The position numbers and the translations under genes are program-made. Source: Candidatus Aminicenantes bacterium (lineage in GTDB: Bacteria; Acidobacteriota; Aminicenantia; Aminicenantales; JAFGBC01). Taken from it: a stretch of 64,000 nucleotides of DNA. The DNA lies in NCBI GenBank assembly GCA_963702005.1, contig OY969696.1:3488001-3552000 (forward strand). Reading direction: 5' to 3'. Shown here in pieces: positions 4,151 to 38,496 of the stretch; position 1 is the first letter of the stretch; the number at the start of each line of letters is the position of its first letter. The notes under the pieces are model-generated. The model searched no databases, was not told the origin of the DNA, and worked only from the letters and a program-made list of their open reading frames with translations.

Positions 4151-5554
4151 CTATTCGTTTCCGATCCCCAGCGCCTTCATTTTATTAAAGAGCGTCTTCC
4201 GGCTGATCCTAAGCGCTTTCGCGGCCAGGGTCCGGTTCCCGCCGGCCTCGCGGAGCGCCTTTTCGATCAGGACTTTTTCCGCCCGCTCCGCGGCCGCCTG
4301 CGCGGCGCCCCGCAGCGATTCGCCGGAAGAGCGGCCCTCCGCTCGCGGACCCGGACGCTTCTCTGCCTCGGCCGCGGCGAACCCGCCCCGGATCCTCGCC
4401 GGCAGCCTCCTCTCATCCAAGATAAGATCGTCGCTGAGGACCATCGATTCGTAGATCACGTTCTCCAACTCGCGGACATTGCCCGGCCAGGCATAGCCCA
4501 GGAGGGCTTCCAGCGCGTCCGGCGCAACGCCGCGGATCTCCTTCTTCAGCTCGGTCGCGTACTTGTTGAAAAAATGCTCGCAGAGAAGGGGGATGTCCTC
4601 CCGGCGGTCGCGCAGCGGCGGGAGATGGAGGGAGAGGACCGCCAGCCTGAAATAGAGGTCCTCCCGGAAGGCGCCTTTCCGGACCTCTTCGTCCAGGACC
4701 TTGTTGGTGGCGGCGATCACCCGGACGTCGATCGGGATGGTCTTCGTCCCGCCGACCTTGACGATCTCCCGTTCGCCCAGGACGCGCAGGAGCTTGACCT
4801 GGGCGTCCTGAGACAGGTCGCCGATTTCGTCGAGGAAGACCGTCCCTCTCTGGGCGAGCTCAAACTTGCCCGTCGTTTCCGTCCTGGCATCCGTAAACGC
4901 GCCCTTGCTGTGGCCGAAGAATTCGGACTCGATCAGGTCGCGCGGGATAGCGCCGCAATTGACCACGACGAAGGGGCCGTCTTTCCGCGGCCCGGCGAAG
5001 TGGATGGCGCGCGCGGCAAGCTCTTTACCCGTGCCGCTCTCCCCCGTGATCAGGACGGTCCCGTCGACGCGGGCGATCCGGTCCATCATCTGGAAGATCG
5101 AGTTCATCCTGGCGCTGGTGCCGACGATGCTGGAGAAGCGGTAGCGGGAAAGGAGCTCGCTTTTGAGGACGGCGACCTCGGCCTCCAACTTCCGGACCTC
5201 GAGTGCCCGGGAGATGAGGAGGAGCAGCTCCTCGTTGTTGACGGGCTTTTCCAGGTAGGCGTAGGCGCCCAGCTTGGTCGCCTCGACGGCATTTTTGATC
5301 GTCCCGAAGGCGGTGATGATGATGATCCGGCAGGCCGGAGAGACCCGCTGCACGCCGGCCAGGACGTCCAATCCCGACATGTCGGGCAGGTTCATGTCCA
5401 GCAGCAAGAGGTCGGGGGCGAAGGTCCCGACCTTTCTAAGCCCCTCGGCTCCGTCCGCCGCGCTCTCGGTAAGATAGCCCTTCTCCTCGAGCAGAAGGCT
5501 GAAGATGTCGCGGATGTTCTTTTCGTCGTCGATGATCAGGATCTTGAATCGCAT
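4151..5554 (-). CDS. Sigma54-dependent response regulator (NtrC/AtoC family enhancer-binding protein)
   Basis: Receiver domain (IIDDE, LLDMNLP), Walker A GESGTGKE, GAFTDA loop, FLDEIG, WPGNVREL, Fis-type HTH. Confidence 0.95.
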   Translation of the reverse strand: MRFKILIIDDEKNIRDIFSLLLEEKGYLTESAADGAEGLRKVGTFAPDLLLLDMNLPDMSGLDVLAGVQRVSPACRIIIITAFGTIKNAVEATKLGAYAYLEKPVNNEELLLLISRALEVRKLEAEVAVLKSELLSRYRFSSIVGTSARMNSIFQMMDRIARVDGTVLITGESGTGKELAARAIHFAGPRKDGPFVVVNCGAIPRDLIESEFFGHSKGAFTDARTETTGKFELAQRGTVFLDEIGDLSQDAQVKLLRVLGEREIVKVGGTKTIPIDVRVIAATNKVLDEEVRKGAFREDLYFRLAVLSLHLPPLRDRREDIPLLCEHFFNKYATELKKEIRGVAPDALEALLGYAWPGNVRELENVIYESMVLSDDLILDERRLPARIRGGFAAAEAEKRPGPRAEGRSSGESLRGAAQAAAERAEKVLIEKALREAGGNRTLAAKALRISRKTLFNKMKALGIGNE

Positions 5555-5569
5555 GGCTCACCTCCGGCT

Positions 5570-6814
5570 TCAGCCCAGGGGAAGGCTGACCAAAATCGTC
5601 GTCCCCTGACCGGTCTTGCTCTTAACCTCGATATCGCCGCGGTGGGATTTGATGATGTTGTAGCAGATTGAAAGCCCCAGCCCGGTTCCGCTTTTTTTCG
5701 TCGTATAAAAGGGGTCGAAGATTCGATCCAGGTTCTCCTCGGGAATCCCATCGCCCGTATCGGTCACGGCGACGACGGCCTTCGGGCCGTCCTTCCGCAG
5801 CGCCTCCACTTTGAGCTCGCCCCCGCCCGGCATGGCCTGGATCGCGTTGAGGAAGACGTTAAGGAAGAGCTGCTTGAGCTGGGAACGATCCCCCCGGACG
5901 GTCAGCGCCTCGTCCGGGAACTCCCGCCGCAGCACGACCTGCTGCTTGCGGGCCTGGAACGAGACCAGGTCCAGACCTTCCTCCAGGGTCTCGACGAGGT
6001 TGTACCGCTCCTGGACGGTCTCGGAGGGACGGGAGAACGACAGCAGGGCCGAGACGATCTCGTTGATCCGGGCCGTCTCCTGGAGGGCCGCGCTGATCAG
6101 CTTGAGGGAGGCCTCGTCGGCGCTCTTCGCTTCCAGGTACTGAAGGGACGACCGGATGGCCGTCAGCGGGTTGCGGATCTCGTGAGCGGCGCCCGCGGCC
6201 AGCTCCCCGATAGTCGCCAGCCGGTCGGCCCGCGACATGCGCCGGAAGCGCTCCCGCTGTTCCTTGAACAGGAGGGCATTCTCCAGGGCGATCCCCGCCT
6301 GGGGCAGGATCGAGGAGATGAAGGAGATCTCGAGCTTGGCGAACCGCGCCCCGCCCGTCTTGGCGCCGACCAGAAGCACTCCGATCAGCCGGTTCATGGA
6401 CATCAGCGGGAAACAGATCTCGATGCCCAGGGCTTCGAGCATTTCGTTTTCCTTCCCGGTCAGGTATTCGAGGACGCCGGGGCGCTGGCGGACCTCCAGG
6501 TAGGTCTCGTTGACCTTGAGCCATTTGACCAGGCGCGAGTTCCGCGGGAAGAAGACCCGACGAGCCTCGTCCTCGGACAGCCCGGCGGAGGCGGAGGACG
6601 CGAATCGCCCCGTGTCCGCGTCGTAGATGAGGAGGATCAGCGTCCGGACCGGACAGACCTCCTTGATCTTGCCCAGGAAATTGCCGGCGATGTTGTCGAA
6701 ATCCTCGATCAGGTTGAGGCTGTCCTCGAATTCCCGGAAGACGAGGAGGGGAAAAGATTCGTCCCCCGTCTTCCCGGTCAAACGGCGGAGGAAGGCTCGG
6801 ATCGCTTTCTTCAT
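5570..6814 (-). CDS. Sensor histidine kinase with N-terminal GAF domain and no obvious TM segment
   Basis: H-box AHEIRNPL, N-box NAIQAM, DTGDGI, FDPFYTTK, GTGLGL; probable start MKKAIR at 6814. Confidence 0.92.
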   Translation of the reverse strand: MKKAIRAFLRRLTGKTGDESFPLLVFREFEDSLNLIEDFDNIAGNFLGKIKEVCPVRTLILLIYDADTGRFASSASAGLSEDEARRVFFPRNSRLVKWLKVNETYLEVRQRPGVLEYLTGKENEMLEALGIEICFPLMSMNRLIGVLLVGAKTGGARFAKLEISFISSILPQAGIALENALLFKEQRERFRRMSRADRLATIGELAAGAAHEIRNPLTAIRSSLQYLEAKSADEASLKLISAALQETARINEIVSALLSFSRPSETVQERYNLVETLEEGLDLVSFQARKQQVVLRREFPDEALTVRGDRSQLKQLFLNVFLNAIQAMPGGGELKVEALRKDGPKAVVAVTDTGDGIPEENLDRIFDPFYTTKKSGTGLGLSICYNIIKSHRGDIEVKSKTGQGTTILVSLPLG

Positions 6815-6916
6815 GGTTTCGATCCTTAGGACATTATACAAAGATTACGGGGAAATCAAAAAGCCCTGCTGCCACGAGCCGAAATGAAACAAGCAAAACC
6901 TTCAACGCCGGCTGAA

Positions 6917-7672: not shown

Positions 7673-9070
7673 TCACCTGACGTCGTAGCGGATAAAGAGG
7701 ACGAAACTCAGCAGGAACGCGGCGCAGGCATAGACGACGTTGATGACCAGGTAAACCAGCGCGGGCTTGAGCCTTTCGGCGAACGACATGGATTTCTCGG
7801 TGAATTGGGGGACGGTGTCGAAGGCGACCGGCCTGCGGGTCGTCGAGACGTCTTCGCGGGGGTTAGACCAGTGCGGGCTCATGGGGTCTCGGGCATCAAA
7901 AGCCTTGAAGAAAGCCAGAAGCTGGGCTTGATAGACGTGGAAGTCGTCCCAGACCTTCCGGAAGCGCGGATATCCGCCGCCGACGACCGCCTCGGGCAGG
8001 AACTGAAATACCGTCACCGGCGAGACTGCGGTCAGGAATCGGGTCCGCTCGAATTGGCGGAATTGACTTTGAATATAGGCGTCTCGAATGTCCATCTCGG
8101 CGTCGAGGAGTTTCCTCTGCAGGTTGGCCCGGAGCTCGTGCTGGGGCAGGAAGGGATTGCCGTACTGCATCATCCAGCTCCCCGGCGGGGCATTATTGCT
8201 CAGATCGGCCTGGACGGCCTGAATCCTGTCCTCGACCGATTTCGAGGTCTCGATCCCGAAGGCACGTTTGGCAAGAAAGGCGGAGGAGTTGGGAATGACG
8301 ACGGCGAACAGCAGCCAGAAGGATAGGGCCAGCAGCAGGCTGACATTGGAACTGCGCGACACCACGGAACACAGCAGGCCGACCGCGGCCAGGACGGCGG
8401 CCATCAAGGCCGAGACGATGACGAATCCCAGCGTCTCCAGAAAAAGCGCCCAGGCCATCGCAACCCGGCCGGACAGCAGGACGACCAGAAGGCTCAGCAG
8501 GATGCCTGGGACAACGATCGCCAGGGAAGCGAGGAGGGCGCTCAGGTATTTGCCGACGAGGAGCGTCCCCCGCGAGCAGGAATTGGATAGGGTTAGGGCC
8601 AGCGTCTTCGACTCCTTCTCCCCCGAGACGGCGTCGAAGGTGAAGAGCAGCGTTACGAAGCTCAGGATCATGGCCACGATGAACGACCAGTTCAGCTCGT
8701 CGAAGGCGTTGAGAAAGGGGTTGCTGCTGCCGCTCTTGTTCTGGAAGGAAAAGACGCTATAGGCGTTAAAGACGACGGCGTTGGGCAGGTACTTCTCCTT
8801 GCCGTCGGAGATGAAAGCGTTGTCCCGCGGCCTCATCGGGTATGTCCATGGGGTCACGGCCAGAGCAGTGGCGTTGGCTTCGGCCTGGGCTTTCATCTCG
8901 GCTAAGAATTTCGACTGGGCCTCACGATAGCGGGTGAGCCCGGCCTCATGGCTATTGACGAACGAAAGCGACCCGGCGACGAACACGACCAGGATAAGGG
9001 CGAGCGAGATCTGGAAGCGCAAGCTGTAGAGGCTGTGCTGAACCTCCCGCTTCAGGACGGTCTTCAGCAT
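7673..9070 (-). CDS. ABC-2 type transporter permease, paralog 1 (ends RYDVR)
   Basis: KRE N-terminal motif, DAVSGEKESKTL..LSN, GKY, IPN, SP; multiple TMs with two large extracytoplasmic loops. Confidence 0.9.
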   Translation of the reverse strand: MLKTVLKREVQHSLYSLRFQISLALILVVFVAGSLSFVNSHEAGLTRYREAQSKFLAEMKAQAEANATALAVTPWTYPMRPRDNAFISDGKEKYLPNAVVFNAYSVFSFQNKSGSSNPFLNAFDELNWSFIVAMILSFVTLLFTFDAVSGEKESKTLALTLSNSCSRGTLLVGKYLSALLASLAIVVPGILLSLLVVLLSGRVAMAWALFLETLGFVIVSALMAAVLAAVGLLCSVVSRSSNVSLLLALSFWLLFAVVIPNSSAFLAKRAFGIETSKSVEDRIQAVQADLSNNAPPGSWMMQYGNPFLPQHELRANLQRKLLDAEMDIRDAYIQSQFRQFERTRFLTAVSPVTVFQFLPEAVVGGGYPRFRKVWDDFHVYQAQLLAFFKAFDARDPMSPHWSNPREDVSTTRRPVAFDTVPQFTEKSMSFAERLKPALVYLVINVVYACAAFLLSFVLFIRYDVR

Positions 9071-9073
9071 GGC

Positions 9074-10681
9074 TCACCTCACGTCGTAGCGGATGAAGGC
9101 GATATAGCCCAGATAAAAGAGCAGGATCGCCTCGACGAGCAGGATTCCGATCCGAGCGATGGAATTTTCCACGCCCTCTAATAAAGACACCGCGCGGTCC
9201 AAGAAGCGGGGCATATCTGAGATGTCGAGAAAGGGGAAATCGTCCGGCTGGTCGCCGCGGAGCTTGACCTTGTTGAGTCTTTGCCATTGGACCCAAAAAT
9301 CCTTCTCCCCGGTGGCCCAATCATCATAAGCCTTCATCGTCTTGAATTCGCCCCCGGTCCTGGCCGCGACGAGCCAGTCGGCCGTCTTCATGTCCTGGGG
9401 AGACGTCGGCGTAAAGTACCGAAATGAAGCAAAAATATTCTTCCCCTGCAAATAGCGGATGAACGTCTCCCGATATTGGCGCATCCGGTCCATGACCTTC
9501 TCATAGGAATGTCCATCCGTCGCGCAGATGGCCGAGGCGATCGTCCGGAAGACTCCCGCGGGCGAAATCAGGGCGATTCGCTCAGCAATCTGCGCCTGGC
9601 GGGTCAAGCTGTCCAGATAAGCTTTTTGGGAGGCCCATTTCTTTTCGGCGTAATCGAGCCGCAGGGGCTCCGAAATCAGCGACCGCTGACGCTCCCTTTC
9701 AAAAAACGAAGCTGTGCACCCATACATTTCCTTATGGCCGTCGTCCCCTCCGATGTTATACCAGCCCATGTCCCAATCGGTCGTCGGCAGAGTCTTTTCC
9801 CGGTCTCGGATCGTTCGGTTGAATTCCCTGTCCAGGTCGTCGATCACGCGAGCCAGGTTCTCGCGGGATTGGACCCGGACGAAGCTCTCGGCGAAATAGG
9901 CAGACAGGTTGGGGACGATGAAGACGAAGAAGACCCAGACGAACAGGCAGAGGACGAGGCTGGTGACGGATGTCTTGGACCGGGCCGAGATGAGGAGCCC
10001 GACGAAGATGAAAACGGCCAGGTAGAGCAGGCTGACGCCGGAGATGAGCGCGATCCGTCCCCAGTCGAGCGCCGAAAAGGACAGATCCTTCGACGCCAGG
10101 ACCAGGAGGGCGCTCAGCAAGAAGCAAAAGATGAGCACGGGCAGCATCGTGACCAGGATGCCTAGGACCTTGCCGGCCAGGAGTCGCGAGCGTCCGATGG
10201 AGTTGGCCATCTGCATCCGCAAGGTGCCGTCCTCCTTCTCGCGGGTGAAGACGTCATAGCTGAAGAGGAGGGCCAGCAGAGAGAAGACGATGGCCGCGAT
10301 ATCGACGAAATCGACCGAGAAGAAGGACGCTAGAAAGGGGTTGTCCCTGACGGCCGTCGTCCCTTCCGCCCACCACGGCTTTTCCCCGAGGAGGATCCTC
10401 ACCCGGTGGCCGACCTGCCCCCGGATGCCCCGGCAGAAGATGCCGAGCGGCTCGGGGGGAAGTACGATCTCGGGCCGCAGGGCCGAATAAACACGGACTT
10501 CCCTGGTCGCCTTTTCCGCCGCGTCCCTCTCGGTCTGGTAGATGGCGGCCTGGTCGCGGTAGTCGTCGATGTTGATCAGGATGCTGAAGGGGATCAGGAC
10601 GAGGCAGAGGAGGAAGCCGATGACGAAGCGGGCGGAGAGGAGGTTGTTGAGGAACTCTTTCCTGACGATTTGAGAAACCAT
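9074..10681 (-). CDS. ABC-2 type transporter permease, paralog 2 (ends RYDVR)
   Basis: MVSQIVRKEF start with AAGGAG RBS; REKEDGTLR, VPN and ISP motifs. Confidence 0.9.
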   Translation of the reverse strand: MVSQIVRKEFLNNLLSARFVIGFLLCLVLIPFSILINIDDYRDQAAIYQTERDAAEKATREVRVYSALRPEIVLPPEPLGIFCRGIRGQVGHRVRILLGEKPWWAEGTTAVRDNPFLASFFSVDFVDIAAIVFSLLALLFSYDVFTREKEDGTLRMQMANSIGRSRLLAGKVLGILVTMLPVLIFCFLLSALLVLASKDLSFSALDWGRIALISGVSLLYLAVFIFVGLLISARSKTSVTSLVLCLFVWVFFVFIVPNLSAYFAESFVRVQSRENLARVIDDLDREFNRTIRDREKTLPTTDWDMGWYNIGGDDGHKEMYGCTASFFERERQRSLISEPLRLDYAEKKWASQKAYLDSLTRQAQIAERIALISPAGVFRTIASAICATDGHSYEKVMDRMRQYRETFIRYLQGKNIFASFRYFTPTSPQDMKTADWLVAARTGGEFKTMKAYDDWATGEKDFWVQWQRLNKVKLRGDQPDDFPFLDISDMPRFLDRAVSLLEGVENSIARIGILLVEAILLFYLGYIAFIRYDVR

Positions 10682-10735
10682 ATCCGCGTCTCCTTGCCTG
10701 TGCCGGCGGGATCGAAGTCCGCCGTATTTTTGAAT

Positions 10736-10753
10736 CTGCATTTTTTATGCCAA
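10736..10753 (-). promoter_or_regulatory. Sigma54 -24/-12 promoter, leftward (permeases 2 and 1)
   Basis: Minus strand TTGGCATAAAAAATGCAG = GG-N10-GC, about 55 nt upstream of ATG 10681. Confidence 0.75.
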
Positions 10754-10757
10754 GTCG

Positions 10758-10836
10758 AATTCTGGGGACACACGACTTATTTCATAATCTCTAAAAGAGA
10801 AATAAAGGGAGAAATAAGTCGTGTGTCCCCAGAATT
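10758..10836. repeat. Perfect 26-bp inverted repeat with 27-bp spacer (REPIN/MITE-like, family C)
   Basis: AATTCTGGGGACACACGACTTATTTC (10758-10783) and its exact reverse complement (10811-10836). Confidence 0.9.
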
Positions 10837-11004: not shown

Positions 11005-11021
11005 TTGGCACGAAACGTGCA
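11005..11021 (+). promoter_or_regulatory. Sigma54 -24/-12 promoter, rightward (tolC operon)
   Basis: TTGGCACGAAACGTGCA, a near-consensus match to TGGCACG-N4-TTGCA, about 44 nt upstream of ATG 11065. Confidence 0.8.
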
Positions 11022-11064
11022 TTATTAGCGCGAGATGACATTCATCGACCGCGGAGAATCGACT

Positions 11065-12679
11065 ATGCGCAATAAAAAACCAATACTCGGCCGTTTGGCT
11101 CATATGATTCTATTCATCCCAATGCTACTCCCCTTCTCCGCGGCCGCGCAGGACAAGCCGGCCGCCCCGGCGGTCTCGCCGGAGAAATCTCCTCTCGCGC
11201 TCACCCTGGACGAGTGCATCGTCAGGGCGGTTAAAAAGAACCTGGGCGTGGCGGTTCAAATCACCACCTCCCGGATGGCCGACCTCGCCCTGACTCGGGC
11301 CGGAGAAAAATTCCTCCCTTCGCTCTTCTTCGACTTCAGCAGCCAGAAAACGAACTCGGCTTCTTACTCCTGGATCCAATCGGCCGACGTCCTGTCCCAA
11401 TCCGCGAAGAGCTACGGGGGGAGCCTCAGCCAGCTCATTCCCCTCGGCGGCAGGCTTGCCGTGTCCCTGGGGGCCGGCCGGAGCGAATCGAATACGCAGT
11501 TCCAGATTATCAACCCCAGCTACAGCGGCTCGCTGTCGTTCTCGCTGACCCAGCCCCTCCTCAGGGATTTCGGATGGGAGACGAGCCGGAGAGACATCCT
11601 GGTCGCCCGGAACAACAAGGACATCGCTCAAAACGACCTCAAGTCCACGCTTCTCGATACGGTTTACTCGGTCGAGCAGGCCTACTGGGAGCTGGTCTTC
11701 CGCATCGAGGCGCTCAAGGTCCGGCGCCAGTCCCTCAAGCTGGCCGAGGACCTCCTCGAAAAAAACCGGAAGGAGATCGAGATCGGGACGAAGGCGCCCA
11801 AGGAGATCCTGACCGCCCAGGCCGCCGTAGCCGCCCGCAAGGCCGATATCCTTCAGGCGGAGCAGATGGTCAAGGACTACGCCGACATGCTGCGCGGCCT
11901 TATCAACCTTCCCTTCGACAACGACGGCGGCGGAGATATCGCCCCCATCGACAGGCCCGGCTTCGCCAAGCGGGAGGTCGGTCTCGACGATGCCCTGGCC
12001 TTGGCCCTGAAGAACCGGCCCGACCTCCAGTCCTTCGCCCTCGAGATCAAGAACAGGGAGCTGGATTATTCCTACGCCAAGAACCAGACGCTTCCCGCCC
12101 TCGACCTCAAGGCCGACTATTGGAGCCCCGGCCTTTCGGGCGATCGGATCCTGTACCTCGACGATAACCCTTTGACCGGAGTCGTCCTGGGCAAGGTCCC
12201 GGGCGGCGCGTCCCTGGCCATGCGCGACGCCCTCAACTTCAAATACAGGAATTGGTCGGTCGCTCTGTCTCTGACCATCCCCCTGAGCTCCGTCCTCACC
12301 CGGGCGGCCCAGGCCGAGGCCAAAGCCGGCCTCGACCGGCAGATCGCCAGGATGAAAAGCCAGGAGCTAAGCGCCGTCTTGGAGATCCGGGCCGCCGTCC
12401 GGGCCGTCCAGACGGACTACGAGCGGGTCGGCGCCTACAAGGCCGCCCGCGAGCTGGCCGAGCAGAAGCTGGCCGCGGAAGAGGCCAAGCTCAAGGCCGG
12501 GCTGAGCAACAACTTCTTCGTCCTCCAGTACCAGCAGGACCTGGCCAGCGCCGGGACGGCCGAGCTGCGGGCCGTCATCGACTATACGCTCTCCCTCGAC
12601 CAGGCTGGACAAGGCCACGGGTGTCAGCCTGGACAAGCGGAACATCGCTTCGCTGACGCCACGGAGGTCGGATCGATGA
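11065..12679 (+). CDS. TolC family outer membrane efflux protein (one +1 indel near 12601)
   Basis: LTLDECIVRAVKKN, LTQPLL, VEQAYWEL, ALKNRPDL, AEEAKLKAGLS; removing one base gives the ending LDRLDKATGVSLDKRNI..RRSDR* overlapping the next ATG. Confidence 0.88.
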
Positions 12680-14172
12680 AAAAGATCGCATCGCATTCTC
12701 CTCGCCCTCGTTGTGATCGGAGCGGCCCTGGGCGGTCCGGCCGCCGCTCAGGAAGGCCAGTCCCAGACGATGAAGCTCCTGACGCCTGAAAAAGGCCCAG
12801 CTCCATGCTCGAAAAGACCAAGGGCGACTTCGACCGCTCGCTCAAGCTCAAGGAACAGGGCCTGACATCCGAGCAGGAGTTCGCCCTGGTCCGGACGGCC
12901 TACCTCCAGGCCCAGGTCGATTACCAGCAGGCCCTGATCAACTTCATGGGCAGCGAGGCCCGCATCTCGGTGGCCAGCGCGGTCAAGTTCCAGGACGCGG
13001 GCGGCAAGAAGTTCGTCCGGGTCACCCTCCGCTACTCCTCCAAGGAGCTCAAGGAGCTGGCCAAGCTGAACATCAAGCGCCGAGGACCTCTTCCCGCTCG
13101 ACTTCATGAAGGAGCTCAAGGACGTCTACGGTCTCGCTGAAGTCCGAGGGCAAGATCGTCTCCGACCCCTACGAGAAGACCATCGCCTCGCCTGCCGCTC
13201 GAATCGGAGCGGGACGTGACCTTCCAGCTTCTCAAGGACGTCGAGAACCTCGACGTCAACGTCTTCTATTCGGGAAAGAACGAGACGACCTCGGTCTACC
13301 TCCAGAAGGGCGTCAGCGCCAACATCGTGACCATCAACTCGGCCCAGTTCTCGCAGGAAGCCGACCTGGAGAGCCACGGCCACCTTCGACCTGTCGCTGG
13401 AGAAATTCTCGGGCGAGGCCAACGTCTTCAAGCTGGAGATCGCCAACCTGCCCCACCAGATCAATTACGAGTTCAGCGATCCCGACGACGGGCGCCCGGC
13501 TGTCCCAGATCAAGTTCACCGAGGGCGTCACCAGCATGAAGCTGTCCCTCAAGCTCTATCTCCCCAAGAACGCCGACGCCCAGGTCGTCATCGACAAGCC
13601 GATCACCTTCTACGCCCTGGCCCTCGACAACGAGCGGGCGGGCGCGCTCCAGGACCTGCTGGCCAAAAAGCCCGAAATCGGGCTCAAGGACATCGAAGCC
13701 CTCAAGGCCGGCAGCGTGCGGCTCGAGCTCATCCCGCGCGGCGTGGGCAAGATCGAGGTCCAGGCCGTCAACCTCTACCACGAGATCAAGGTCGGCGAGG
13801 CTGTCGCGATGGAAGTCAGGGTCAGCAACGCCGGGACCCGCAAGCTCAACAATATCCGGCGTCTTCGCCGACCTGCCGCTCAACTGGCGGTCCGAGATCG
13901 AGCCCGACCTGATCGCCTCGCTCGACCAGAACAAGGAGCAGGTCGTCACGATCAAGTTCCTGCCGCCGGCCGACGTCGCCGTCGGCGATTATGAGCCGAA
14001 GATCAAGACCGAGTGCAGCGCCGACAACCGGAAGGTCGAGTCCGAGGACAAGATCGTCCGCGTCCACGTCGCCTCGAAGACGAACGTCCTGGGCATCAGC
14101 CTGCTGGTGCTCCTGCTGGTCGGCCTGCTGGTCGGGATCGTCGTCTTCGGCATCAAGCTGACCCGGCGCTGA
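12676..14172 (+). CDS. Secreted, C-terminally anchored protein: alpha-hairpin + Ig-like/NEW3 domains + TM (about 495 aa after removing nine +1 indels)
   Basis: Manual reconstruction: MKKIASILLALVVIGAALGGPAAA|QEGQ..LEKTKGDFDRSLKLKEQGLTSEQEF..NAGTRKLNNI..LPLNWRSEIEP..PPADVAVGDYE..NVLGISLLVLLLVGLLVGIVVFGIKLTRR*; GGAGG RBS; pieces visible in ORFs 12805, 13216 and 13536. Confidence 0.8.
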
Positions 14173-14209
14173 ACCCGCCGCGTCGAACGTACGAAACAAG
14201 GAGGACATC

Positions 14210-14949
14210 ATGGCTCAAACGAATCCCATCCTTAAGGCCGACGACCTGTCCAAGCGCTACGAGGACGGCGTCCTGGCTCTCGACCACCTCAACCTGGACG
14301 TGCACGGGGGCGAGGTCTACTGCCTGCTCGGCGCCAACGGCGCGGGAAAGACGACGACGATCAACCTTTTCCTGAACTTCATCCCGCCCACGACGGGAAC
14401 CTGCTACATCACCGGCATCGACGTCACCAAGGACCCGCTCGAGGCGAAAAAGTACGTCGCCTTCGTCTCGGAGAACGTCATGCTCTACGGCAATTTCACG
14501 GCCCGCCAGAACCTGGACTTCTTCGCCAAGCTGGGCGGGAAGCCCGACCTGACCAAGGAGCATTATTATCAGGTCATGCGGCGCGTCTCGCTCCAGGAGA
14601 AAGCCTTCGAGCAGCGGGTCAAGACCTTTTCCAAAGGCATGCGGCAAAAGCTCGGAATCTCGATCGCCGTCATCAAGGACGCGCCGGCCATCCTGCTCGA
14701 CGAGCCGACCTCGGGCCTCGACCCCAAAGCGGCCGAGGAGTTCCTGGAGATCCTGGACGAGCTGAAGAAAGAAAACAAGGCGATCCTTATGTCCACCCAC
14801 GACATCTTCCGGGCCAAGGAGATCGGCGACCGGGTCGGGATCATGAAGGAAGGCCGGCTGGTCATGGAGCGGACCCGCGGGAGCTTCAGTACGAGGACCT
14901 GGTCAAGATCTACATCGACTACATGAAGTCCGAACCCCTGACGGCTTAG
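14210..14949 (+). CDS. ABC transporter ATP-binding protein (one -1 indel near 14879)
   Basis: GANGAGKTT, FSKGMRQK, LLDEPTSGLDP, STHD; natural ending ELQYEDLVKIYIDYMKSEPLTA* lies in the shifted frame. Confidence 0.93.
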
Positions 14950-14952
14950 TCC

Positions 14953-16395
14953 ATGCTGAAAACCATCGTTCGCAAAGAGCTTCTCGAGAACATCTTCAGC
15001 TACCGCTTTCCGCTGTTCGCCCTCATCTGCATCGTCCTCATTCCGTTGGGCATGTTCGTCAATAACGCCCAGTATTCCAAGCGGCTCAGGGATTACGGCG
15101 AGCAGGTGCGCCTGGCGGACGAAGGGGCCTCGGGGCTCACGATGCAGGACGTCATGGCCGGACGGGTGACCCTCAAGGGCTTCCGCCGGCCCGCGCCGCT
15201 GTCGATATTCGCCCAGGGCTTCGAGAACACCTTGCCCCGCTACTACCAATTCACGCAGGACGGCTTCGCTCAAGGCGAATCGGCCAGCGGCGACGAGTCC
15301 TTTCTTTCGACCCAGGGCAAGTTCGATTTCGTCTTCCTGGTCCAGATGGTCATCAGCCTGATCGGCCTGCTGTTTGCCTCGGATGTCATCGCGGGCGAGA
15401 AGGAGTCGGGCACGCTGCGGGCCATGCTCTCGAACCGCTTGCCGCGGGACGCCGTTCTGATCGGCAAGATCGCCGGCGGCTTCCTGGCCCTGGCGGCGTC
15501 CTTCCTGGTCGCCCTCCTGCTGGGCGTCCTGATCCTTCTGCCGGGAGGTTTTCCGCTCTTCAGCGGCGACGGCTTGGCCCGGATTCTCATCCTGGCTCTG
15601 GCCTCCCTGTTCTTCATGCTGATCTACTACACGATCGGGACGATGGTCTCGACCAGTTCCTCCAAAACGAGGACATCGCTGGTGGCCATTCTTCTCATCT
15701 GGTCGGGCTTCCAGCTGGTTATTCCCAAGTTGAGCGATATGGCCGCCGCGCTGATCTATCCGGTGCGTACGGAAACCGAAGTCTCGCTCGAAAAATCCCT
15801 CCTGATCAATTCGATCGAGACCGAAACGGCGAAAGAACTGGGCCGCCAGTACGACCTGATCTTCGGAAGCGCGGCCGCGGGCGTCGCGGACGACGTGAAC
15901 TCGCCCGAGAGGAAGAAATGGGATCCGCTCAGAGACGACATCCAGCTGCGCGCCCGGGAGAGGAAGGCCCAGCAGCTCCAGACGATCGACGAGACCTTCC
16001 AGATGCGGAAGCGGCGGCAGCAAAACCTGGCCGTGAATCTGTCCTTGATCTCGCCCAGCGCGGCTTTCGGCCGCTTCGCCGCCGACGTCTGCGCGACGGG
16101 CGAGCTGGCGCGCGCGAAATACCAGGAGGCCGTCCGCTCCCATCAAAAGGCCCTCGACAACGAGCTCTTCAGCAAAGTCAAGCGGACCCTGATGATGCAC
16201 GCGGATGGCCGCATGACGATGATGTTTTCCGCCCAGCCGGTGGACCCCAAAAATCTGCCGAAATTTACGATCGGCGTCGCTTCGCTGGGGGACACCTTCA
16301 AGGAAAACGGGCGCAGCCTTCTGGCGCTGGCTTTCTGGCTGATCGCTCCTTTCGCCTTCGCCTATATCCGATTCTTGAAATACGACGTCCGATAG
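14953..16395 (+). CDS. ABC-2 type transporter permease, paralog 3 (ends KYDVR)
   Basis: MLKTIVRKEL, AGEKESGTLR, IGKI, VIP, ISP. Confidence 0.9.
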   Translation: MLKTIVRKELLENIFSYRFPLFALICIVLIPLGMFVNNAQYSKRLRDYGEQVRLADEGASGLTMQDVMAGRVTLKGFRRPAPLSIFAQGFENTLPRYYQFTQDGFAQGESASGDESFLSTQGKFDFVFLVQMVISLIGLLFASDVIAGEKESGTLRAMLSNRLPRDAVLIGKIAGGFLALAASFLVALLLGVLILLPGGFPLFSGDGLARILILALASLFFMLIYYTIGTMVSTSSSKTRTSLVAILLIWSGFQLVIPKLSDMAAALIYPVRTETEVSLEKSLLINSIETETAKELGRQYDLIFGSAAAGVADDVNSPERKKWDPLRDDIQLRARERKAQQLQTIDETFQMRKRRQQNLAVNLSLISPSAAFGRFAADVCATGELARAKYQEAVRSHQKALDNELFSKVKRTLMMHADGRMTMMFSAQPVDPKNLPKFTIGVASLGDTFKENGRSLLALAFWLIAPFAFAYIRFLKYDVR

Positions 16396-16402
16396 TGATC
16401 CG

Positions 16403-17722
16403 ATGCTGAGAACGATCATCAGGCGGGAAATCCTCGAATACCTGAAATCCGCTAAGTTCCTCATCGGTCTGATGATCGCAGTCATCCTGACGGCGGCGAG
16501 CACATTCATCAACGTCCAGGATTACGCCATCCGCCACCAGGACTACCTCGATGCTAAGAACAATTTGAAATCAGACGGCTTCAGGATAAAAATCTTCCGC
16601 GAACCCCAGGTTCTGGGCACACTTGCCCGGGGCAAAGACCGGGAGATAGGCGACCAGATCGAGATGTCGGTCATAGATGCGCCGCGCAGGCTCACCGGAT
16701 ATATGGACGAAGGGCGGAAGAGGAATCCCACGTTCGCGGGCTTCTCGGCCGTCGACTTCGCCTTCCTCGTCCGGGTCGTGCTAAGCCTTCTCGTCGTTTT
16801 CCTGGCGTATAACAGCGTGTCGGAGGAGAAGGCCAACGGAACCCTGAAGCTCGCCTTGGCCAACGCCTTGCCTCGGGACAAGCTTCTTCTCGGAAAACTC
16901 ATCAGCGGCCTCCTCGTTGCCCTGGGCTCGCTCGTGATCGCAGCCCTCCTTGCATCCCTTATCCTGATCCTCCATCCCTCGGTCTCTCTGTCGGGCGGCG
17001 ATATGGTCAGGATCGCGGCGATGCTGGCCGTTTCGGCTCTCTATCTTTCCGCCTTTTATGCCCTAGGGCTTTATATCTCGGTCAAGACAGACCGTCCGGC
17101 GGTGTCCCTGATGATTCTCCTCCAGGCTTGGATCGTGCTGGTCATCATCTACCCCAATTTGAGCGTGGCCTTTGCGGAGCGCTTTTATCCCCTGCCGAGT
17201 GAAGAGTCGCTGGCTCGGCAAAAGGACGCTGTTTGGGATAAACACAGCGCCGAAATCAAAAAGGCGAACGAGGGCTTTCAAAAGGTTTCCCCAACGCTGG
17301 AAGACAGGCTGAGATTCGTCGAAGCCTGGTCCTCCACAGCGGCAGACTATGATAGCATCGCTGCGGAGCTCGACCGTCGCCAGACCTCGCAGATGAAATT
17401 AGCGGTATTTCTCTCCGGTCTCTCGCCCGCCGCCCTCTGCGACCAGGTCATGAATCGCCTTGCCCGGACCGACATTCGGGAATATGACCGGTTCGTCGAC
17501 GGCGCCCACCGGCTCTGGCTGAAGTTCGTCGAACGGTCCAAGCTCCGCTACAGGGACGAAGAGGCATTCAAAAGGAGCACGCTTCCGGATTTCAGCTATA
17601 TTTCAGACAGGCCGGGAGAAGCCGTTGTCGCCGTCTGGCCGCATTGGCTGATCTTGTTCCTTTTCAACTGCATTTTCTTCGCGCTTGCTTACACAGGCTT
17701 CCTGAGAAAAGACCTCCGGTGA
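16403..17722 (+). CDS. ABC-2 type transporter permease, paralog 4 (ends RKDLR)
   Basis: MLRTIIRREI, SEEKANGTLK, LGKL, YPN, LSP. Confidence 0.9.
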   Translation: MLRTIIRREILEYLKSAKFLIGLMIAVILTAASTFINVQDYAIRHQDYLDAKNNLKSDGFRIKIFREPQVLGTLARGKDREIGDQIEMSVIDAPRRLTGYMDEGRKRNPTFAGFSAVDFAFLVRVVLSLLVVFLAYNSVSEEKANGTLKLALANALPRDKLLLGKLISGLLVALGSLVIAALLASLILILHPSVSLSGGDMVRIAAMLAVSALYLSAFYALGLYISVKTDRPAVSLMILLQAWIVLVIIYPNLSVAFAERFYPLPSEESLARQKDAVWDKHSAEIKKANEGFQKVSPTLEDRLRFVEAWSSTAADYDSIAAELDRRQTSQMKLAVFLSGLSPAALCDQVMNRLARTDIREYDRFVDGAHRLWLKFVERSKLRYRDEEAFKRSTLPDFSYISDRPGEAVVAVWPHWLILFLFNCIFFALAYTGFLRKDLR

Positions 17723-17726
17723 TGCC

Positions 17727-19133
17727 ATGAAGACGATCCTCCGCCGCGAATTTCTGGACCATATCCAAAGCCTGCAATTCATGGCCCTTCTAGCCTTGGC
17801 CGTTATTCTGTTCGCAGGCAACGGCCTTATCTTCGTTAAGTCCTATTCGCAGCGGATCGACGCCTACCAAAAGAATCTGGCTTTCATGCAGGAGCAGGAA
17901 TGGAAGAGCACCGTGCGCCTCCAGCTCTACAGGCGTCCCAGCTCGCTGCTTTTTATCGCAGAAGGTGGGGATATCATAAGGCCTTCCGAATACTATCTCC
18001 TTCCTAAAGGAGCCCTCTCGGCCGGAGAGCAGAATCTTAGGACGTTCAAGATGCCGACCGTGCCGACGCTGGACTGGTCCTTCATCATCGGCACCTTGTT
18101 CAGCCTCTATACCATACTCTTAGGCTACAGCACCGTGTCATGGGAGAGGGAACAGGGGACACTTCGGTTGGTTCTCGCCAATTCACTCGGCCGGGTCCAC
18201 TTGCTCACGGCCAAATACTTGTCCGTCCTTTCGGTCATCGCGGTTCCGCTCCTGGCCGGCACCCTCGTTAGCCTGATCATCATCGGGACGCTCGTCCCGC
18301 AGGCCATGACGCTGGCCAACGTTTCCAGGATCGTCCTGGTTCTTCTCCTGGCCCTGGCGTACGTTTCCCTTTTCGCGTTCTTGAGCCTCCTCTTTTCGTC
18401 GATCATCTCCCGATCATCGCTTGTCCTGCTGACACTCCTCGCCATATGGGTGCTTTTTGCCATCGTCATCCCCAGCTCTTCCCTAGTTCTGGTCGACAAG
18501 CTTTCGTCGGCCCCCCGCGAGATCCAGGCAGCCCGGATGTTCGAGCCCATGGTTCAGAAAGAAGTGTGGGAAAAAATCGATGCGATCGTTGCCGGGGCCG
18601 GGCGGGGCGAATACAAGACGGAGGAGGAGGTCAGGGCAGGCACGGACCACGCTTTCGAGGAGGGTCAGAACCGGGTCAAACAATTCTACGAAGATTTCGG
18701 AAAATCTGAGAAAGCCCGAGCCGCCCAGGCTAAAAACCTGTCGCGGCTCTCCCCCCTGGCCTTATTCCAATATGCCTCGGAGGATATCGTCCAGTCAGGG
18801 GACGGCGGAGAAGATGAGTTTTTGAGGCAGGTTCGGGAATATTCCCGCATTTATGACGCGTATATCCAGAAGAAACTCGGCAAGATCATAGTGACTTCGG
18901 ATTGGTCGTTTTCTAAGAATATTGGCTTTCATGGGAAAACCATCCGCATCGAATCGCCCGAAGCCCTGGAATACGAGGGGGATAAGTCCGACTTCCCGGT
19001 CTTCAGCGAGCGGCGGCCGTCCCTGAGCAAGGGACTCAAGAGCGCCCTGGGCGACCTGGCCGGGCTCATTCTCTGGAACATCGTCCTGGCCGGCTTGGCT
19101 TTTTCAGCCTTCATCAGGACAGACGTGAGATGA
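17727..19133 (+). CDS. ABC-2 type transporter permease, paralog 5 (ends RTDVR)
   Basis: MKTILRREF, SWEREQGTLR, AKY, IPS, LSP. Confidence 0.9.
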   Translation: MKTILRREFLDHIQSLQFMALLALAVILFAGNGLIFVKSYSQRIDAYQKNLAFMQEQEWKSTVRLQLYRRPSSLLFIAEGGDIIRPSEYYLLPKGALSAGEQNLRTFKMPTVPTLDWSFIIGTLFSLYTILLGYSTVSWEREQGTLRLVLANSLGRVHLLTAKYLSVLSVIAVPLLAGTLVSLIIIGTLVPQAMTLANVSRIVLVLLLALAYVSLFAFLSLLFSSIISRSSLVLLTLLAIWVLFAIVIPSSSLVLVDKLSSAPREIQAARMFEPMVQKEVWEKIDAIVAGAGRGEYKTEEEVRAGTDHAFEEGQNRVKQFYEDFGKSEKARAAQAKNLSRLSPLALFQYASEDIVQSGDGGEDEFLRQVREYSRIYDAYIQKKLGKIIVTSDWSFSKNIGFHGKTIRIESPEALEYEGDKSDFPVFSERRPSLSKGLKSALGDLAGLILWNIVLAGLAFSAFIRTDVR

Positions 19134-19236
19134 TTCGCAAAGACATGAAGGAAGCGCTTTTTTACTATCTCCGGAGACCGCCCGTCGCTCCCGGGCTGCA
19201 ACCCGGGTTGAACGGTTCCGGGAAAGAGGTGCGGGC

Positions 19237-20472
19237 ATGATCGGAACCATCGTTCGCAAGGAGATCGCCGCCAACCTCCTCAGCTACAAGTTCTTTATCG
19301 TCATGCTACTGGCTTCCCTGCTCGTCTTCACCAGCCTGTTCGTCATGGTCAGGGATTTCAAGGGACGGCAGGCCGACTATCAACTCAACAAAGCCAAGCC
19401 CGGAGAGCCGATCGCCATCATCCCGCCCAATCCCCTGTCCATCTTCGCCAAGGGCCTGGACGACGCCATGACCCGCTCCTTCGGAGTCGGCATCACCGGT
19501 ATCTACGTCCAGGCCGGCCAGCAGTCCGGCAACATCATCTTTTCCTTTTTCCCTTCGCCCGATTTCGTCTACGTCGTCAAGGTCGTGCTGTCGCTGGTGG
19601 CCCTTCTGTTCGGCTTCGACCAAATCAGCCGGGAGAAGGAAGCGGGCACCCTGAAACTGGTGTTCGCCAATTCGCTCTCCCGGGCCTCCGTCCTGGCCGG
19701 CAAGTGGCTCGGCAACTTCCTGAGCCTGGCCGTCCCCTTCCTGCTGGTGACCATACTGGGGATCGCCCTGATGAGCCTCGATCCCGCTGTGCGCCTCTCC
19801 GGATCGGGGCTCGGGCGGCTGGCGTTGTTGCTCGCAACAAGCCTCATCTACGTCGCCCTGTTCTTAAGCCTCGGCATTTTCATCTCCACGGTCACCCGGC
19901 GGTCCGCTTCATCTCTGGTTGTTCTCCTCTTCATCTGGTCGCTGCTAGTCTTCATCCTGCCCAACCTGGGCACGCTGCTGGCCCGCCAATTCGTCGACGT
20001 TCCGTCCGTCCGCGCCCTGAGCGAGAAGCGGGAGCAGATCTGGACGCGGGAAGTCCTCATGCGCTATACCGATAAAACCGACAACTGGGACGCCCGGATC
20101 AAAAACATGAACGCCGAATTCGACAAGATGGAGGAAGACTACCGCAACAAGTTCGACCGCCTGATCCGATTGTCTAAGAACATCAACCGGATCTCGCCGG
20201 CGGCCAGCTTCGTCTACGCCGCCACCGAGATCGCCGGCACCGGGATCGGCGAGGAAGGCTTGCTTAAAAGCGAAGTCATCCGCTATAAAAACCGGTTCTT
20301 GGAGGACATCCGGTCCGGGATCAAGGGACACGCCGCGTTCAGCTACCGTTACCGTTCCGTCGGACGCGTATTGGCCGAGGGGAGCCTGTTCGATATCGCC
20401 TGGCTCCTGGTCTTCAATATCGTCTTTTTCGCCGCGGGCTACGCCGCGGTCGTGCGCTACGACGTCAGATAA
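19237..20472 (+). CDS. ABC-2 type transporter permease, paralog 6 (ends RYDVR)
   Basis: MIGTIVRKEI, SREKEAGTLK, GKW, LPN, ISP. Confidence 0.9.
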   Translation: MIGTIVRKEIAANLLSYKFFIVMLLASLLVFTSLFVMVRDFKGRQADYQLNKAKPGEPIAIIPPNPLSIFAKGLDDAMTRSFGVGITGIYVQAGQQSGNIIFSFFPSPDFVYVVKVVLSLVALLFGFDQISREKEAGTLKLVFANSLSRASVLAGKWLGNFLSLAVPFLLVTILGIALMSLDPAVRLSGSGLGRLALLLATSLIYVALFLSLGIFISTVTRRSASSLVVLLFIWSLLVFILPNLGTLLARQFVDVPSVRALSEKREQIWTREVLMRYTDKTDNWDARIKNMNAEFDKMEEDYRNKFDRLIRLSKNINRISPAASFVYAATEIAGTGIGEEGLLKSEVIRYKNRFLEDIRSGIKGHAAFSYRYRSVGRVLAEGSLFDIAWLLVFNIVFFAAGYAAVVRYDVR

Positions 20473-20474
20473 GG

Positions 20475-21917
20475 ATGACAGCTATGATCCCTATCCTCGT
20501 CATGAAAGAAATCCGCAACCACCTCCTGTCGTTCCGGTTCCTGGTGACATTCGTCCTTCTCCTGGTCATCGTCCCAGTCACAACCTTGATCCTGACCAAC
20601 GATTACATACGGAAACAGGACGATTATTCCCGGCGCCAGGCCGAGATTCAGAATTACCTAAGCCGCTACGCCCATTTCAACCGGATCGGAAACGTGATCG
20701 AGCCTTCCCAGCCGCCCGTTCCGTTCTATGCGCTCGTCCGGGGGCTGTCGGCCGACGTCAATATCAACGCCTTCTACAACGACCCTCTGCCTGTCATGTT
20801 TCCGCTGCTGGACTTGACGTTCATCGTCGCCATTCTCCTCAGCCTGGCCGCCCTGGTCTTCGCCTACGACTCCCTATCCGGCGAAAAGGAAGACGGGACC
20901 CTGAAGCTCATGCTGGCCAACGGCCTGGCCCGGTCCAAGATCATCGCCGCCAAGGTTTTGGGAGGAACGGCGACCTTGCTCATCCCCTTCCTGGTTTCGC
21001 TGGCCGTCGGCCTGATCATCATCCTGCTCAACCCGAGGGTGGGCTGGAAAGGGTCGGATTGGGGCGCGCTGGGGATGATCGCGATCGGGGCCGTCGTTTA
21101 TTTTACCCTCTTCACCTGCCTGGGGATCTTCATCTCCTCGCGCCACCAGTCGAGCTCCTCGTCGATCATGACCTCGCTCTTTGTCTGGGTTCTCGCCGTC
21201 CTGGTCGTCCCCAACCTCAGCCCTTACCTGGCCTCGCTCCTCCGTCCGACGCCCTCCCGGATCATGATCAACCGGGAGGTCCAGCGCATCACCCAGGATG
21301 AACGCGACGAGCTCGGCCGGATAATCCAGAAGGAAAGAACGGCGGAGGTTCTCAAGGAATATCCCGTCCTGGCTCCCGTTTTCAGGATGTCCGAACAGGA
21401 AATCCTGGACGCCATCAAGAAGGACCCCGCCTTCGCTCGCGCCTATGAAGCTTTGCGAAAGACGATCGAGGCGGTTTGGCGCGAAGCTAACAGGATCCAG
21501 GGCGAAAAAGCCAAGGTCTTGACAGAAGACTTGGACCGAAAGGAAAAGGCGCAGACTCGGCTCTCCGTCCTCCTGTCCCTGAGCTCCCCCATGGCCGCCT
21601 TCTCTTATTTGACCACGGACCTCTCCAACACCGGGATGAGGAATGAAATTCATTTTAGCGAGCTGGCAAGGGGATGGGGTCAGGCCTACGAAGACTTCGC
21701 GACCCAAAAAATGGAGGAGCTCAGGAAAAAGGATCCGACCATGGATGTCTGGAACTCGCCGGTCGACGTCCGCGATATGCCGCGCTTCCAATACAAGGAA
21801 GAAGCGCTGACGGGACGGATCAAGGCCGTTCTGGCGCCGTTAGCCGTCCTGGCCGTCCTCTCCATCGTTCTGTTCGGCGCGGCCTACGCTTCCTTCATCC
21901 GCTACGACGTCCGCTGA
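20475..21917 (+). CDS. ABC-2 type transporter permease, paralog 7 (ends RYDVR)
   Basis: LVMKEI, SGEKEDGTLK, AKV, VPN, SSP. Confidence 0.9.
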   Translation: MTAMIPILVMKEIRNHLLSFRFLVTFVLLLVIVPVTTLILTNDYIRKQDDYSRRQAEIQNYLSRYAHFNRIGNVIEPSQPPVPFYALVRGLSADVNINAFYNDPLPVMFPLLDLTFIVAILLSLAALVFAYDSLSGEKEDGTLKLMLANGLARSKIIAAKVLGGTATLLIPFLVSLAVGLIIILLNPRVGWKGSDWGALGMIAIGAVVYFTLFTCLGIFISSRHQSSSSSIMTSLFVWVLAVLVVPNLSPYLASLLRPTPSRIMINREVQRITQDERDELGRIIQKERTAEVLKEYPVLAPVFRMSEQEILDAIKKDPAFARAYEALRKTIEAVWREANRIQGEKAKVLTEDLDRKEKAQTRLSVLLSLSSPMAAFSYLTTDLSNTGMRNEIHFSELARGWGQAYEDFATQKMEELRKKDPTMDVWNSPVDVRDMPRFQYKEEALTGRIKAVLAPLAVLAVLSIVLFGAAYASFIRYDVR

Positions 21918-37218: not shown

Positions 37219-37237
37219 GGCCTCTCCCAAGAAAAAT

Positions 37238-38485: not shown

Positions 38486-38496
38486 CGAGTTTACTC

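Follow-up and report, generated by a model that had tools for sequence, protein, structure and literature searches.

Canonical periplasmic adaptors of tripartite exporters seal the conduit by rings of lipoyl and beta-barrel domains, and current assembly models (a hexameric tube, docked tip to tip) rest on the core of that adaptor family. To our knowledge, all well-studied tripartite pumps draw on this one family with its fixed domain core. In Escherichia coli, YbhS and YbhR are ABC-2 family permeases (ABC, ATP-binding cassette). YbhGFSR is an ABC-2-type exporter with the membrane fusion protein (MFP) YbhG and a presumed use of TolC. In MacA, AcrA and MexA, the hairpin tip bears the RLS motif, defined by the spacing R-x3-L-x6-S (PMC3391258). 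MacAB-TolC and YbhGFSR, both with canonical adaptors, are the closest known systems to the locus reported here, which lies in a 64,000-nucleotide stretch of a Candidatus Aminicenantes bacterium genome (assembly GCA_963702005.1, contig OY969696.1, positions 3,488,001 to 3,552,000 of the forward strand; hereafter the window). Between a TolC-family gene and ABC transporter genes, the window holds a frame-broken gene for a protein with an N-terminal alpha-hairpin, immunoglobulin-like (Ig-like) domains and a NEW3 domain. The best explanation of the locus as a whole, to which we give a probability of about 0.55, is that errors have broken a conserved gene whose product takes the place of the HlyD-family adaptor in a tripartite exporter. 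The whole case rests on computation.

To reconstruct the gene, we followed codon usage across the three frames with a Viterbi path whose codon log-odds were trained on 12 intact open reading frames (ORFs) of the window. The path ran from the ATG at 12676 to the TGA at 14170-14172 and changed frame exactly nine times, each time by +1, following the codons at 12685, 12782, 12801, 13075, 13127, 13188, 13369, 13487 and 13854. The three-frame translation of 12560-14200 showed the same picture, with protein-like text that changed frame repeatedly and in one direction throughout. A MAFFT alignment with the eight closest DNA relatives revealed single bases that only the window carries, gapped in 8/8 relatives, at 12784, 12806, 13078, 13128, 13190, 13374, 13480 and 13860. 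The first frame change falls in the variable signal-peptide region, where the alignment shows a two-base gap after 12693; it can be taken as +1 or -2, its exact position being unfixed. An earlier reading of the bare letters, made without database searches (the sequence-only reading), had proposed a hidden gene of about 495 amino acids (aa) interrupted by nine single-base insertions, and the path and the alignment bear this out. One of its residues has to be corrected: the M in LKKAQL-M-LEK is the product of the inserted T at 12806, where the relatives have CAG (Q). The read-through product was identical to the intact 494-aa public protein P0001 at 456/482 positions, which places the reconstructed gene far beyond chance. 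It kept 106/107 columns that are invariant among ten family members, the sole miss being the unmapped M1, and 30/32 columns with a conservation of 90% or more in 80 members; here M1 was missed again, as was a second column with G229E, a change also present in P0001. The gene is real and conserved; what breaks its frame in this record is most likely a localised cluster of single-base errors.

We next describe the family to which the product belongs. A search with the longest in-frame piece returned 824 proteins at E <= 1e-3. Among the best 120 of these 824, most were intact at 485-507 aa and a few entries were shorter (343-464 aa); PF10633 was found in all 120, and the names given by the sources were 'NEW3 domain-containing', 'COG1470 family' and 'hypothetical', P0110 being a 'COG1470 family protein' in one source. 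An exhaustive search with P0001 yielded 571 cluster representatives (50% clustering) at E <= 1e-3 and 199 at E <= 1e-30, with full-length matches reaching down to 27% identity. The family is large and occurs in Aminicenantota, and probably also in Zixiibacteriota and Bacteroidota, in which a feature search of the ESM Atlas, taken as a lead only, found clusters of the same type of about 500 aa.

The AlphaFold2 model of P0001, built on an 80-sequence alignment, had a mean pLDDT of 92.6 and a pTM of 0.74. Its helices comprise a signal-peptide helix (residues 2-16), a long pair (29-58 and 64-90) joined by a five-residue tip, and a terminal helix (467-493) followed by basic residues; about 370 residues form beta structure, interrupted by a short helical insert at 315-339. 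A Foldseek comparison of the whole model with the PDB gave tandem Ig-like proteins alone at ranks 1-50, including integrin alpha legs, ciliary ASH-domain proteins and bacterial alpha-2-macroglobulin; this run used the whole model rather than its domains and thus does not address the hairpin or the single domains. phmmer of P0001 against PDB sequences gave no matches. The NEW3 domain PF10633 scored 28.5 bits on the window piece 13858-14169 (cut-off 24.4), 42.6 bits on P0001 and 41.1-47.5 bits on P0105, P0110 and P0036, and in a profile search against PDB sequences a sialidase NEW3-like domain was matched at 6.4e-4. The read-through sequence thus carries the parts that the sequence-only reading had listed: a signal-peptide-like N-terminus ending AAA/QE, where cleavage would be expected, a helical stretch with R-x3-L-x3-G-x2-S, beta-rich domains ending in NEW3, and a hydrophobic C-terminal helix followed by KLTRR. 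The presence of a signal peptide, taken together with the positive-inside rule, suggests that the C-terminal helix lies in the inner membrane, with the body periplasmic and the hairpin at its far end.

The N-terminal region, which had been expected to fold as an alpha-hairpin, was modelled confidently as one, with helices of 30 and 27 residues and a pLDDT of 87-97 over the block. In NCBIfam, residues 35-85 matched the hairpin part of the CzcB model TIGR00999 (9.9e-6), and P0105 matched the EmrA model TIGR00998 (5.7e-5); since the match is confined to the hairpin, both scores stayed well under the curated cut-offs, which are meant for whole proteins. A profile of 80 sequences searched against all PDB sequences gave 21 matches. 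Fifteen of them lay on positions 21-96, and 12 of these were periplasmic adaptors: a TriA-TriB fusion (6e-5, the best), the putative efflux transporter 4l8j, MexJ, a MacA/MexA chimera, five MexA entries, ZneB and two AcrA entries. The other three of the 15 were unrelated, at E >= 0.34, and the remaining six matches fell on the NEW3 region (sialidases and a GH20 enzyme). The profile stretch 26-88 aligned with MexA 70-132. On this sequence evidence, we regard the hairpin as homologous to that of the MFPs, or periplasmic adaptors.

The tip of the hairpin carries the RLS motif in its exact spacing, as R52-x3-L56-x6-S63 in P0001, with a glycine at position 60. Among 80 diverse members, the arginine was present in 58/80, the leucine in 72/80, the glycine in 54/80 and the serine in 58/80, with threonine in a further seven. 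Within residues 30-99, comparable conservation was reached only at A77 (70) and L34 (67). In the Aminicenantes loci, R-L-G-L-S was retained in 77/80, and the window product has all five residues. The sequence-only reading had staked its case in part on the conservation of the R, L and S residues, and these results place them among the best-conserved positions of the hairpin.

The protein is not an MFP, because it is without lipoyl, beta-barrel and membrane-proximal domains and has its anchor at the opposite end. No lipoyl domain was matched in Pfam or NCBIfam at E <= 1, and helix 1 of the model begins at residue 29, directly after the signal peptide, which leaves no room for an N-terminal half-lipoyl domain. 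For residues 94-365, Pfam, NCBIfam and the profile search against PDB sequences gave no family match, beta-barrel and membrane-proximal domains included. An N-terminal anchor of the MFP type was not found either: the signal peptide looks cleavable and has no Cys, and the only other hydrophobic helix is the C-terminal one. Of the 'adaptor of reversed topology' that had been proposed, the hairpin and the C-terminal anchor stand, whereas the idea of an MFP turned round does not, the MFP core domains being absent. It is better described as an accessory protein of the ABC-2 system with a hairpin of the MFP type. In architecture it corresponds to the COG1470 type (NEW3/Ig domains, a C-terminal transmembrane helix and adjacent ABC genes), an assignment that goes by architecture, there being no formal family definition.

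Compared with MacA of MacAB-TolC and with MexA and AcrA, the protein shares an alpha-hairpin of equal length, the tip RxxxLxxxxxxS, and a gene setting with a TolC-family channel and an ABC exporter. It differs in that the hairpin stands at the mature N-terminus instead of being inserted in a lipoyl domain, in that its anchor is a C-terminal transmembrane helix instead of an N-terminal helix or lipid, and in that its body is a chain of Ig-like domains instead of the lipoyl, beta-barrel and membrane-proximal domains. YbhGFSR, with its ABC-2-type permeases, is likewise of tripartite design, with a separate ATPase and an operon-encoded adaptor (PMC7190983); there the adaptor YbhG is a canonical MFP, whereas here a NEW3-hairpin protein holds the adaptor position, and the permeases are seven paralogues of the ABC2_membrane_2/DUF3526 type. 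HlyD of type I secretion has an RLT variant of the tip motif, which binds the TolC tip (PMC3391258), and it partners an ABC transporter; it differs from the present protein in its N-terminal transmembrane anchor and its MFP core domains, and no sequence match to HlyD itself was obtained. A literature search whose coverage stopped short of subscription journals found no description of such an adaptor.

A hairpin-less relative was also found. Columns 222-478 of the family alignment matched a 391-aa NEW3 protein, WP_341353674.1, from a Neorhizobium plasmid (hhalign probability 97.9%). Like the family, this protein has a NEW3 domain, preceding Ig-like domains and a C-terminal hydrophobic helix, and an ABC ATPase gene lies immediately downstream. 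Unlike the family, it has no hairpin at about 390 aa, and its first 146 residues align with neither the hairpin nor the first beta domain; within 7 kb, the gene table of this single example, itself incomplete, lists no TolC gene. On this alignment, a NEW3 protein of more general ABC association seems to have gained the hairpin together with the first beta domain.

To place the gene in its genomic setting, we collected 80 related loci, all from Aminicenantes (69-86% identity), and counted linkage in the 42 whose flanking sequence reaches 5 kb or more on either side of the gene. A TolC-like gene was linked in 34/42; in 9 of the 34 it lay directly upstream on the same strand, in 11 it was divergent within 600 bp, and in the rest it mostly lay about 3.1-3.4 kb upstream, past two-component genes. 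An ATPase gene was present within 5 kb in 37/42 loci and a permease gene in 39/42. In these loci TolC is linked to most of the homologs, which supports the sequence-only reading on this point. Stop and start codons of tolC and the hairpin-Ig-NEW3 gene overlapped by 4 bp in 12/20 co-directional related loci, and the ATGA overlap noted earlier in the window is real once the base at 12603 is discounted. No canonical adaptor was detected among 52 unlabelled neighbour proteins in 22 loci (0/52), nor was any adaptor family matched in the 34 other window ORFs scanned (0 of 34) or in the cluster genes. A sigma-54 regulator adjoined the cluster in 11/22 loci scanned, paired with a GAF-domain kinase in 10-11/22. 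One relative, P0233 (892 aa), is an ABC-2 permease fused end to end with the hairpin-Ig-NEW3 protein; in it the former signal peptide forms an extra membrane helix, and the motif Arg is displaced by three residues with L, G and S kept. This fusion could reflect a lost stop codon and is taken as a lead only.

A paralogous arrangement was observed as well, in which a permease gene, a 240-aa ATPase gene and the NEW3-hairpin gene are followed by unrelated genes, with no TolC within 8 kb and the tip motif kept (loci L020, L021, L028, L030, L031, L034-L036 and L073; L073 has Met for the motif Arg).

Features of the frame-broken gene and its neighbours in the window (residue numbers follow P0001)
Feature	Coordinates	Strand	Remarks
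Hairpin-Ig-NEW3 protein gene, frame-broken	12676..14172	+	495 codons when nine +1 shifts are read through
In-frame pieces of the gene, first five	12676-12687, 12689-12784, 12786-12803, 12805-13077, 13079-13129	+	
In-frame pieces of the gene, last five	13131-13190, 13192-13371, 13373-13489, 13491-13856, 13858-14169	+	
Signal-peptide-like N-terminus	12676..12750	+	hydrophobic, ends AAA/QE, without lipobox Cys; first frame change inside; helix 2-16
Alpha-helical hairpin, residues 29-90	12764..12951	+	two extra bases inside, near 12784 and 12806
RLS-type tip R-x3-L-x6-S, G at +8	12835..12870	+	R 12835-12837, L 12847-12849, G 12859-12861, S 12868-12870
Predicted beta-rich periplasmic stalk, residues 94-462	12961..14070	+	tandem Ig-like sandwiches with helical insert 315-339 (model)
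NEW3 / NPCBM_assoc domain PF10633	13788..14001	+	split by extra base at about 13857-13860
C-terminal transmembrane helix, then KLTRR	14083..14169	+	helix 467-493; read as positive-inside anchor
TolC-family outer-membrane factor gene	11035..12679	+	one extra base at 12603; ATGA 12676-12679 overlaps next gene
ABC transporter ATPase, DrrA-like	14210..14949	+	one base missing near 14879
Five tandem ABC-2 permease paralogues	14953..21917	+	ABC2_membrane_2, four with DUF3526
Two ABC-2 permease paralogues	7673..10741	-	divergent from tolC
Sigma-54 promoter-like site TGGCAC-N5-GTGC	11006..11020	+	one mismatch to TGGCAC-N5-TTGC; just upstream of tolC
Sigma-54-dependent response regulator	4151-5554	-	
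Histidine kinase	5570-6841	-	

In the window, the gene order is sigma-54 regulator, kinase and two permeases on the minus strand, then tolC, the hairpin-Ig-NEW3 gene, the ATPase gene and five permeases on the plus strand. The tolC product matched the Pfam family OEP at 2.1e-36 (125.9 bits in two stretches) and TIGR01844 at 101.7 bits, below the cut-off of 225. The model of the TolC orthologue of locus L006 matched E. coli TolC (1ek9) in Foldseek at 1e-18 with a TMt of 0.74. Its turns at 242-245 (H3/H4) and 478-482 (H7/H8) hold G242, conserved in at least 90%, and the invariant G479; the equivalent glycines of OprM are essential for MexA binding (PMC6447562). A complex prediction with one TolC protomer (L006, 36-537) and two hairpins (24-93) scored 0.02 against a mark of 0.32, the input being a TolC monomer outside its trimer context, unlike the cases on which the tool was calibrated; the score therefore weighs neither towards binding nor away from it.

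Seven paralogous ABC-2 permeases (five with DUF3526) surround the single ATPase gene, with C-termini such as RYDVR, RTDVR and RKDLR; related loci hold three to six permease copies. A second sigma-54 promoter-like site lies at 10738-10752 on the minus strand, with two mismatches, so that the two sites face both divergent operons. Over the whole window, 32 matches to the sigma-54-like pattern were found against 42 expected from shuffles, which is not above chance, and it is the placement of the two sites alone that suggests a role. Should the sites be real, tolC and the gene at 9074-10741 probably start at internal ATGs instead. Between the minus-strand permeases and tolC lies a perfect 26-nt inverted repeat (10758-10783 / 10811-10836, 27-nt spacer), which could be a binding site for a sigma-54 activator or an RNA hairpin. 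Farther away, the stretch 35959-39837, with a G+C content of 0.50-0.52 against about 0.60, codes for a GH99-like glycosidase and a DUF1565 protein and has one further ORF that Pfam does not match; it may be a separate acquisition. A copper/heavy-metal P-type ATPase with YHS and HMA domains (30914-33577, minus strand) has a small YHS/HMBD protein nearby (25687-26328, minus strand); between them are encoded a 951-aa DUF7948/SBBP beta-propeller protein and a DUF1015 protein.

From these features we propose the following arrangement. The signal peptide would direct export of the protein of about 495 aa, and the C-terminal helix would anchor it in the inner membrane. The Ig-like stalk, of which NEW3 is the last domain, would stand in the periplasm with the alpha-hairpin on top. 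The membrane-proximal NEW3 domain and the transmembrane helix would associate with the ABC-2 permease and ATPase encoded next to it, as the hairpin-less COG1470 cousins presumably do, and the hairpin tips would reach the co-transcribed TolC-like channel at its two helix-turn-helix tips, both of which contain Gly. In this way the protein would replace the HlyD-family adaptor in a tripartite exporter, possibly under sigma-54 regulation. Of this picture, the analysis establishes the gene, its fold and tip motif, the homology of the hairpin and the linkage of the genes; the contacts, stoichiometry and substrate we infer.

Several points weigh against this proposal. The contact between hairpin and TolC and the assembly-fault origin of the indels are both reached by inference. 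We know of no way in which an Ig-like stalk could seal a conduit, so that transport through the stalk would be unexplained. The hairpin also weakly matches the helices of TolC itself (OEP at 0.0031 in P0105, 0.0012 in P0140 and 0.00057 in P0141), and its similarity to adaptors may accordingly be in part coiled-coil character. The motif Arg is absent in 22/80 diverse members, and the corresponding Arg of MexA is dispensable for complex formation (PMC6447562). All contexts examined (80/80) come from one phylum. In 8/42 loci, most of them of the paralogous permease-ATPase-NEW3 arrangement, no TolC-like gene lies within 8 kb and the tip motif is still kept. P0233 is a single fusion among the 150 representatives listed, 11 of which were scanned for fusions, and it lacks the first permease helix; a search for longer, fused relatives of P0001, which is weak evidence, found none.

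The adaptor reading is nonetheless the best one when set against the other functions that the protein could have. The chief rival holds that the protein works in the periplasm solely as an accessory of the ABC-2 transporter, for example to capture substrate, to help assemble the permease or to regulate it, with the hairpin as a coiled coil for oligomerisation or permease binding and with TolC engaged otherwise or not at all. The C-terminal two-thirds are indeed common to hairpin-less NEW3/COG1470 proteins encoded beside ABC ATPase genes with no annotated TolC nearby, the ABC genes are more tightly linked than TolC, a whole paralogue group does without TolC in its vicinity, and the partner in the P0233 fusion is a permease and not TolC. 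Against it stand a hairpin that specifically matches adaptor families with the exact RLS spacing, motif positions that are among the best conserved of the hairpin region, the translational coupling of the gene to tolC in more than half of the co-directional loci, and the lack of any other candidate for the adaptor among the cluster and neighbour genes scanned. We consider this rival unlikely, albeit the one to be taken most seriously. A role at the cell surface or in adhesion, as a NEW3/CARDB-type protein unrelated to transport, is far less probable still: tandem Ig-like domains do resemble adhesin stalks, but the C-terminal anchor with its positive-inside residues points to the inner membrane, the gene is consistently set among ABC-2, ATPase and TolC genes, and the hairpin is of the MFP type.

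The origin of the frame breaks was weighed in the same manner. The sequence-only reading had described nine insertions in the hairpin-Ig-NEW3 gene; nine shifts do lie there, but the 3' ends of tolC and of the ATPase gene are hit too. The indels total eleven in 2.3 kb, ten extra bases and one missing, from 12603 to about 14879, spread over these three genes. When the extra base in tolC is removed, the gene ends at the stop TGA 12677-12679 with a family-like C-terminus, and the tail matches the consensus of 48 related TolC sequences up to the stop; a one-base gap after 12646 was also considered as a real event and rejected, since removal of the base at 12603 alone restores the consensus C-terminus. 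In the ATPase gene, the base missing near 14879 is so relative to 7/8 relatives; the family-like C-terminus and the stop 14947-14949 sit in the -1 frame, and the ORF as it stands encodes 238 aa with an out-of-frame end, the true product being about 246 aa. Could this copy be a true pseudogene in a decaying operon, its indels being the real mutations of a very recent inactivation? Three consecutive genes are hit, and the truncated ORF 13536-13991 is identical at 152/152 residues, a 45-residue out-of-frame tail included, to the public library protein P0217, so the breaks belong to the deposited sequence. Decay nevertheless seems improbable, considering that eleven indels in so short a stretch have cost no mapped invariant residue (106/107; M1 unmapped), that the differences from four relatives fall mostly on the third codon position (113-134, with 31-45 at the first and 31-45 at the second), that insertions make up 10/11 of the indels, and that five or more of the extra bases do not lengthen a run of the same letter and so are not of the slippage type. 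The remainder of the 64-kb window is tiled by long, abutting ORFs and holds no comparably fragmented stretch, and frame-broken fragments of other family members, such as P0210, are also found in the library. Programmed recoding or +1 ribosomal frameshifting that reads the gene as it stands would fit the single direction of all nine changes; the contexts differ from site to site, however, a comparison of the indel sites found no common sequence context, the extra bases are absent in 8/8 relatives, and the neighbour genes are hit as well, one of them by deletion. With no shared shift-prone context, and with the extra bases missing from the relatives, this explanation was excluded. The indels thus appear to be a local burst of assembly or consensus errors rather than decay.

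Frame-truncated fragments of the family with out-of-frame tails stand in the library as separate 'proteins', some of them as cluster representatives (P0217, P0210, P0206, P0221 and P0195, the last three judged to be fragments from their lengths and matched stretches alone). The practical lesson is that a local error burst can hide a gene from ORF callers and let its fragments enter public protein libraries as separate 'proteins'.

Taken further, the locus may represent a new class of periplasmic adaptor, in which an MFP-type hairpin is grafted on a C-terminally anchored Ig/NEW3 stalk of the COG1470 kind and replaces HlyD-family adaptors in TolC-dependent ABC-2 exporters of several diderm phyla (Aminicenantota and, by the feature search, Zixiibacteriota and Bacteroidota). 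We advance this wider claim tentatively, at a little short of an even chance. If it is true, the hairpin would be a portable docking module, and tripartite pumps could be built without the lipoyl, barrel and membrane-proximal core. Naming the likely role would improve annotation in many genomes of uncultured lineages, given the 571 representatives at 50% identity. The family would also provide a natural experiment on what suffices to engage a TolC channel, since it would do so with only a hairpin and its RLS tip, set on an unrelated stalk and anchored at the opposite end.

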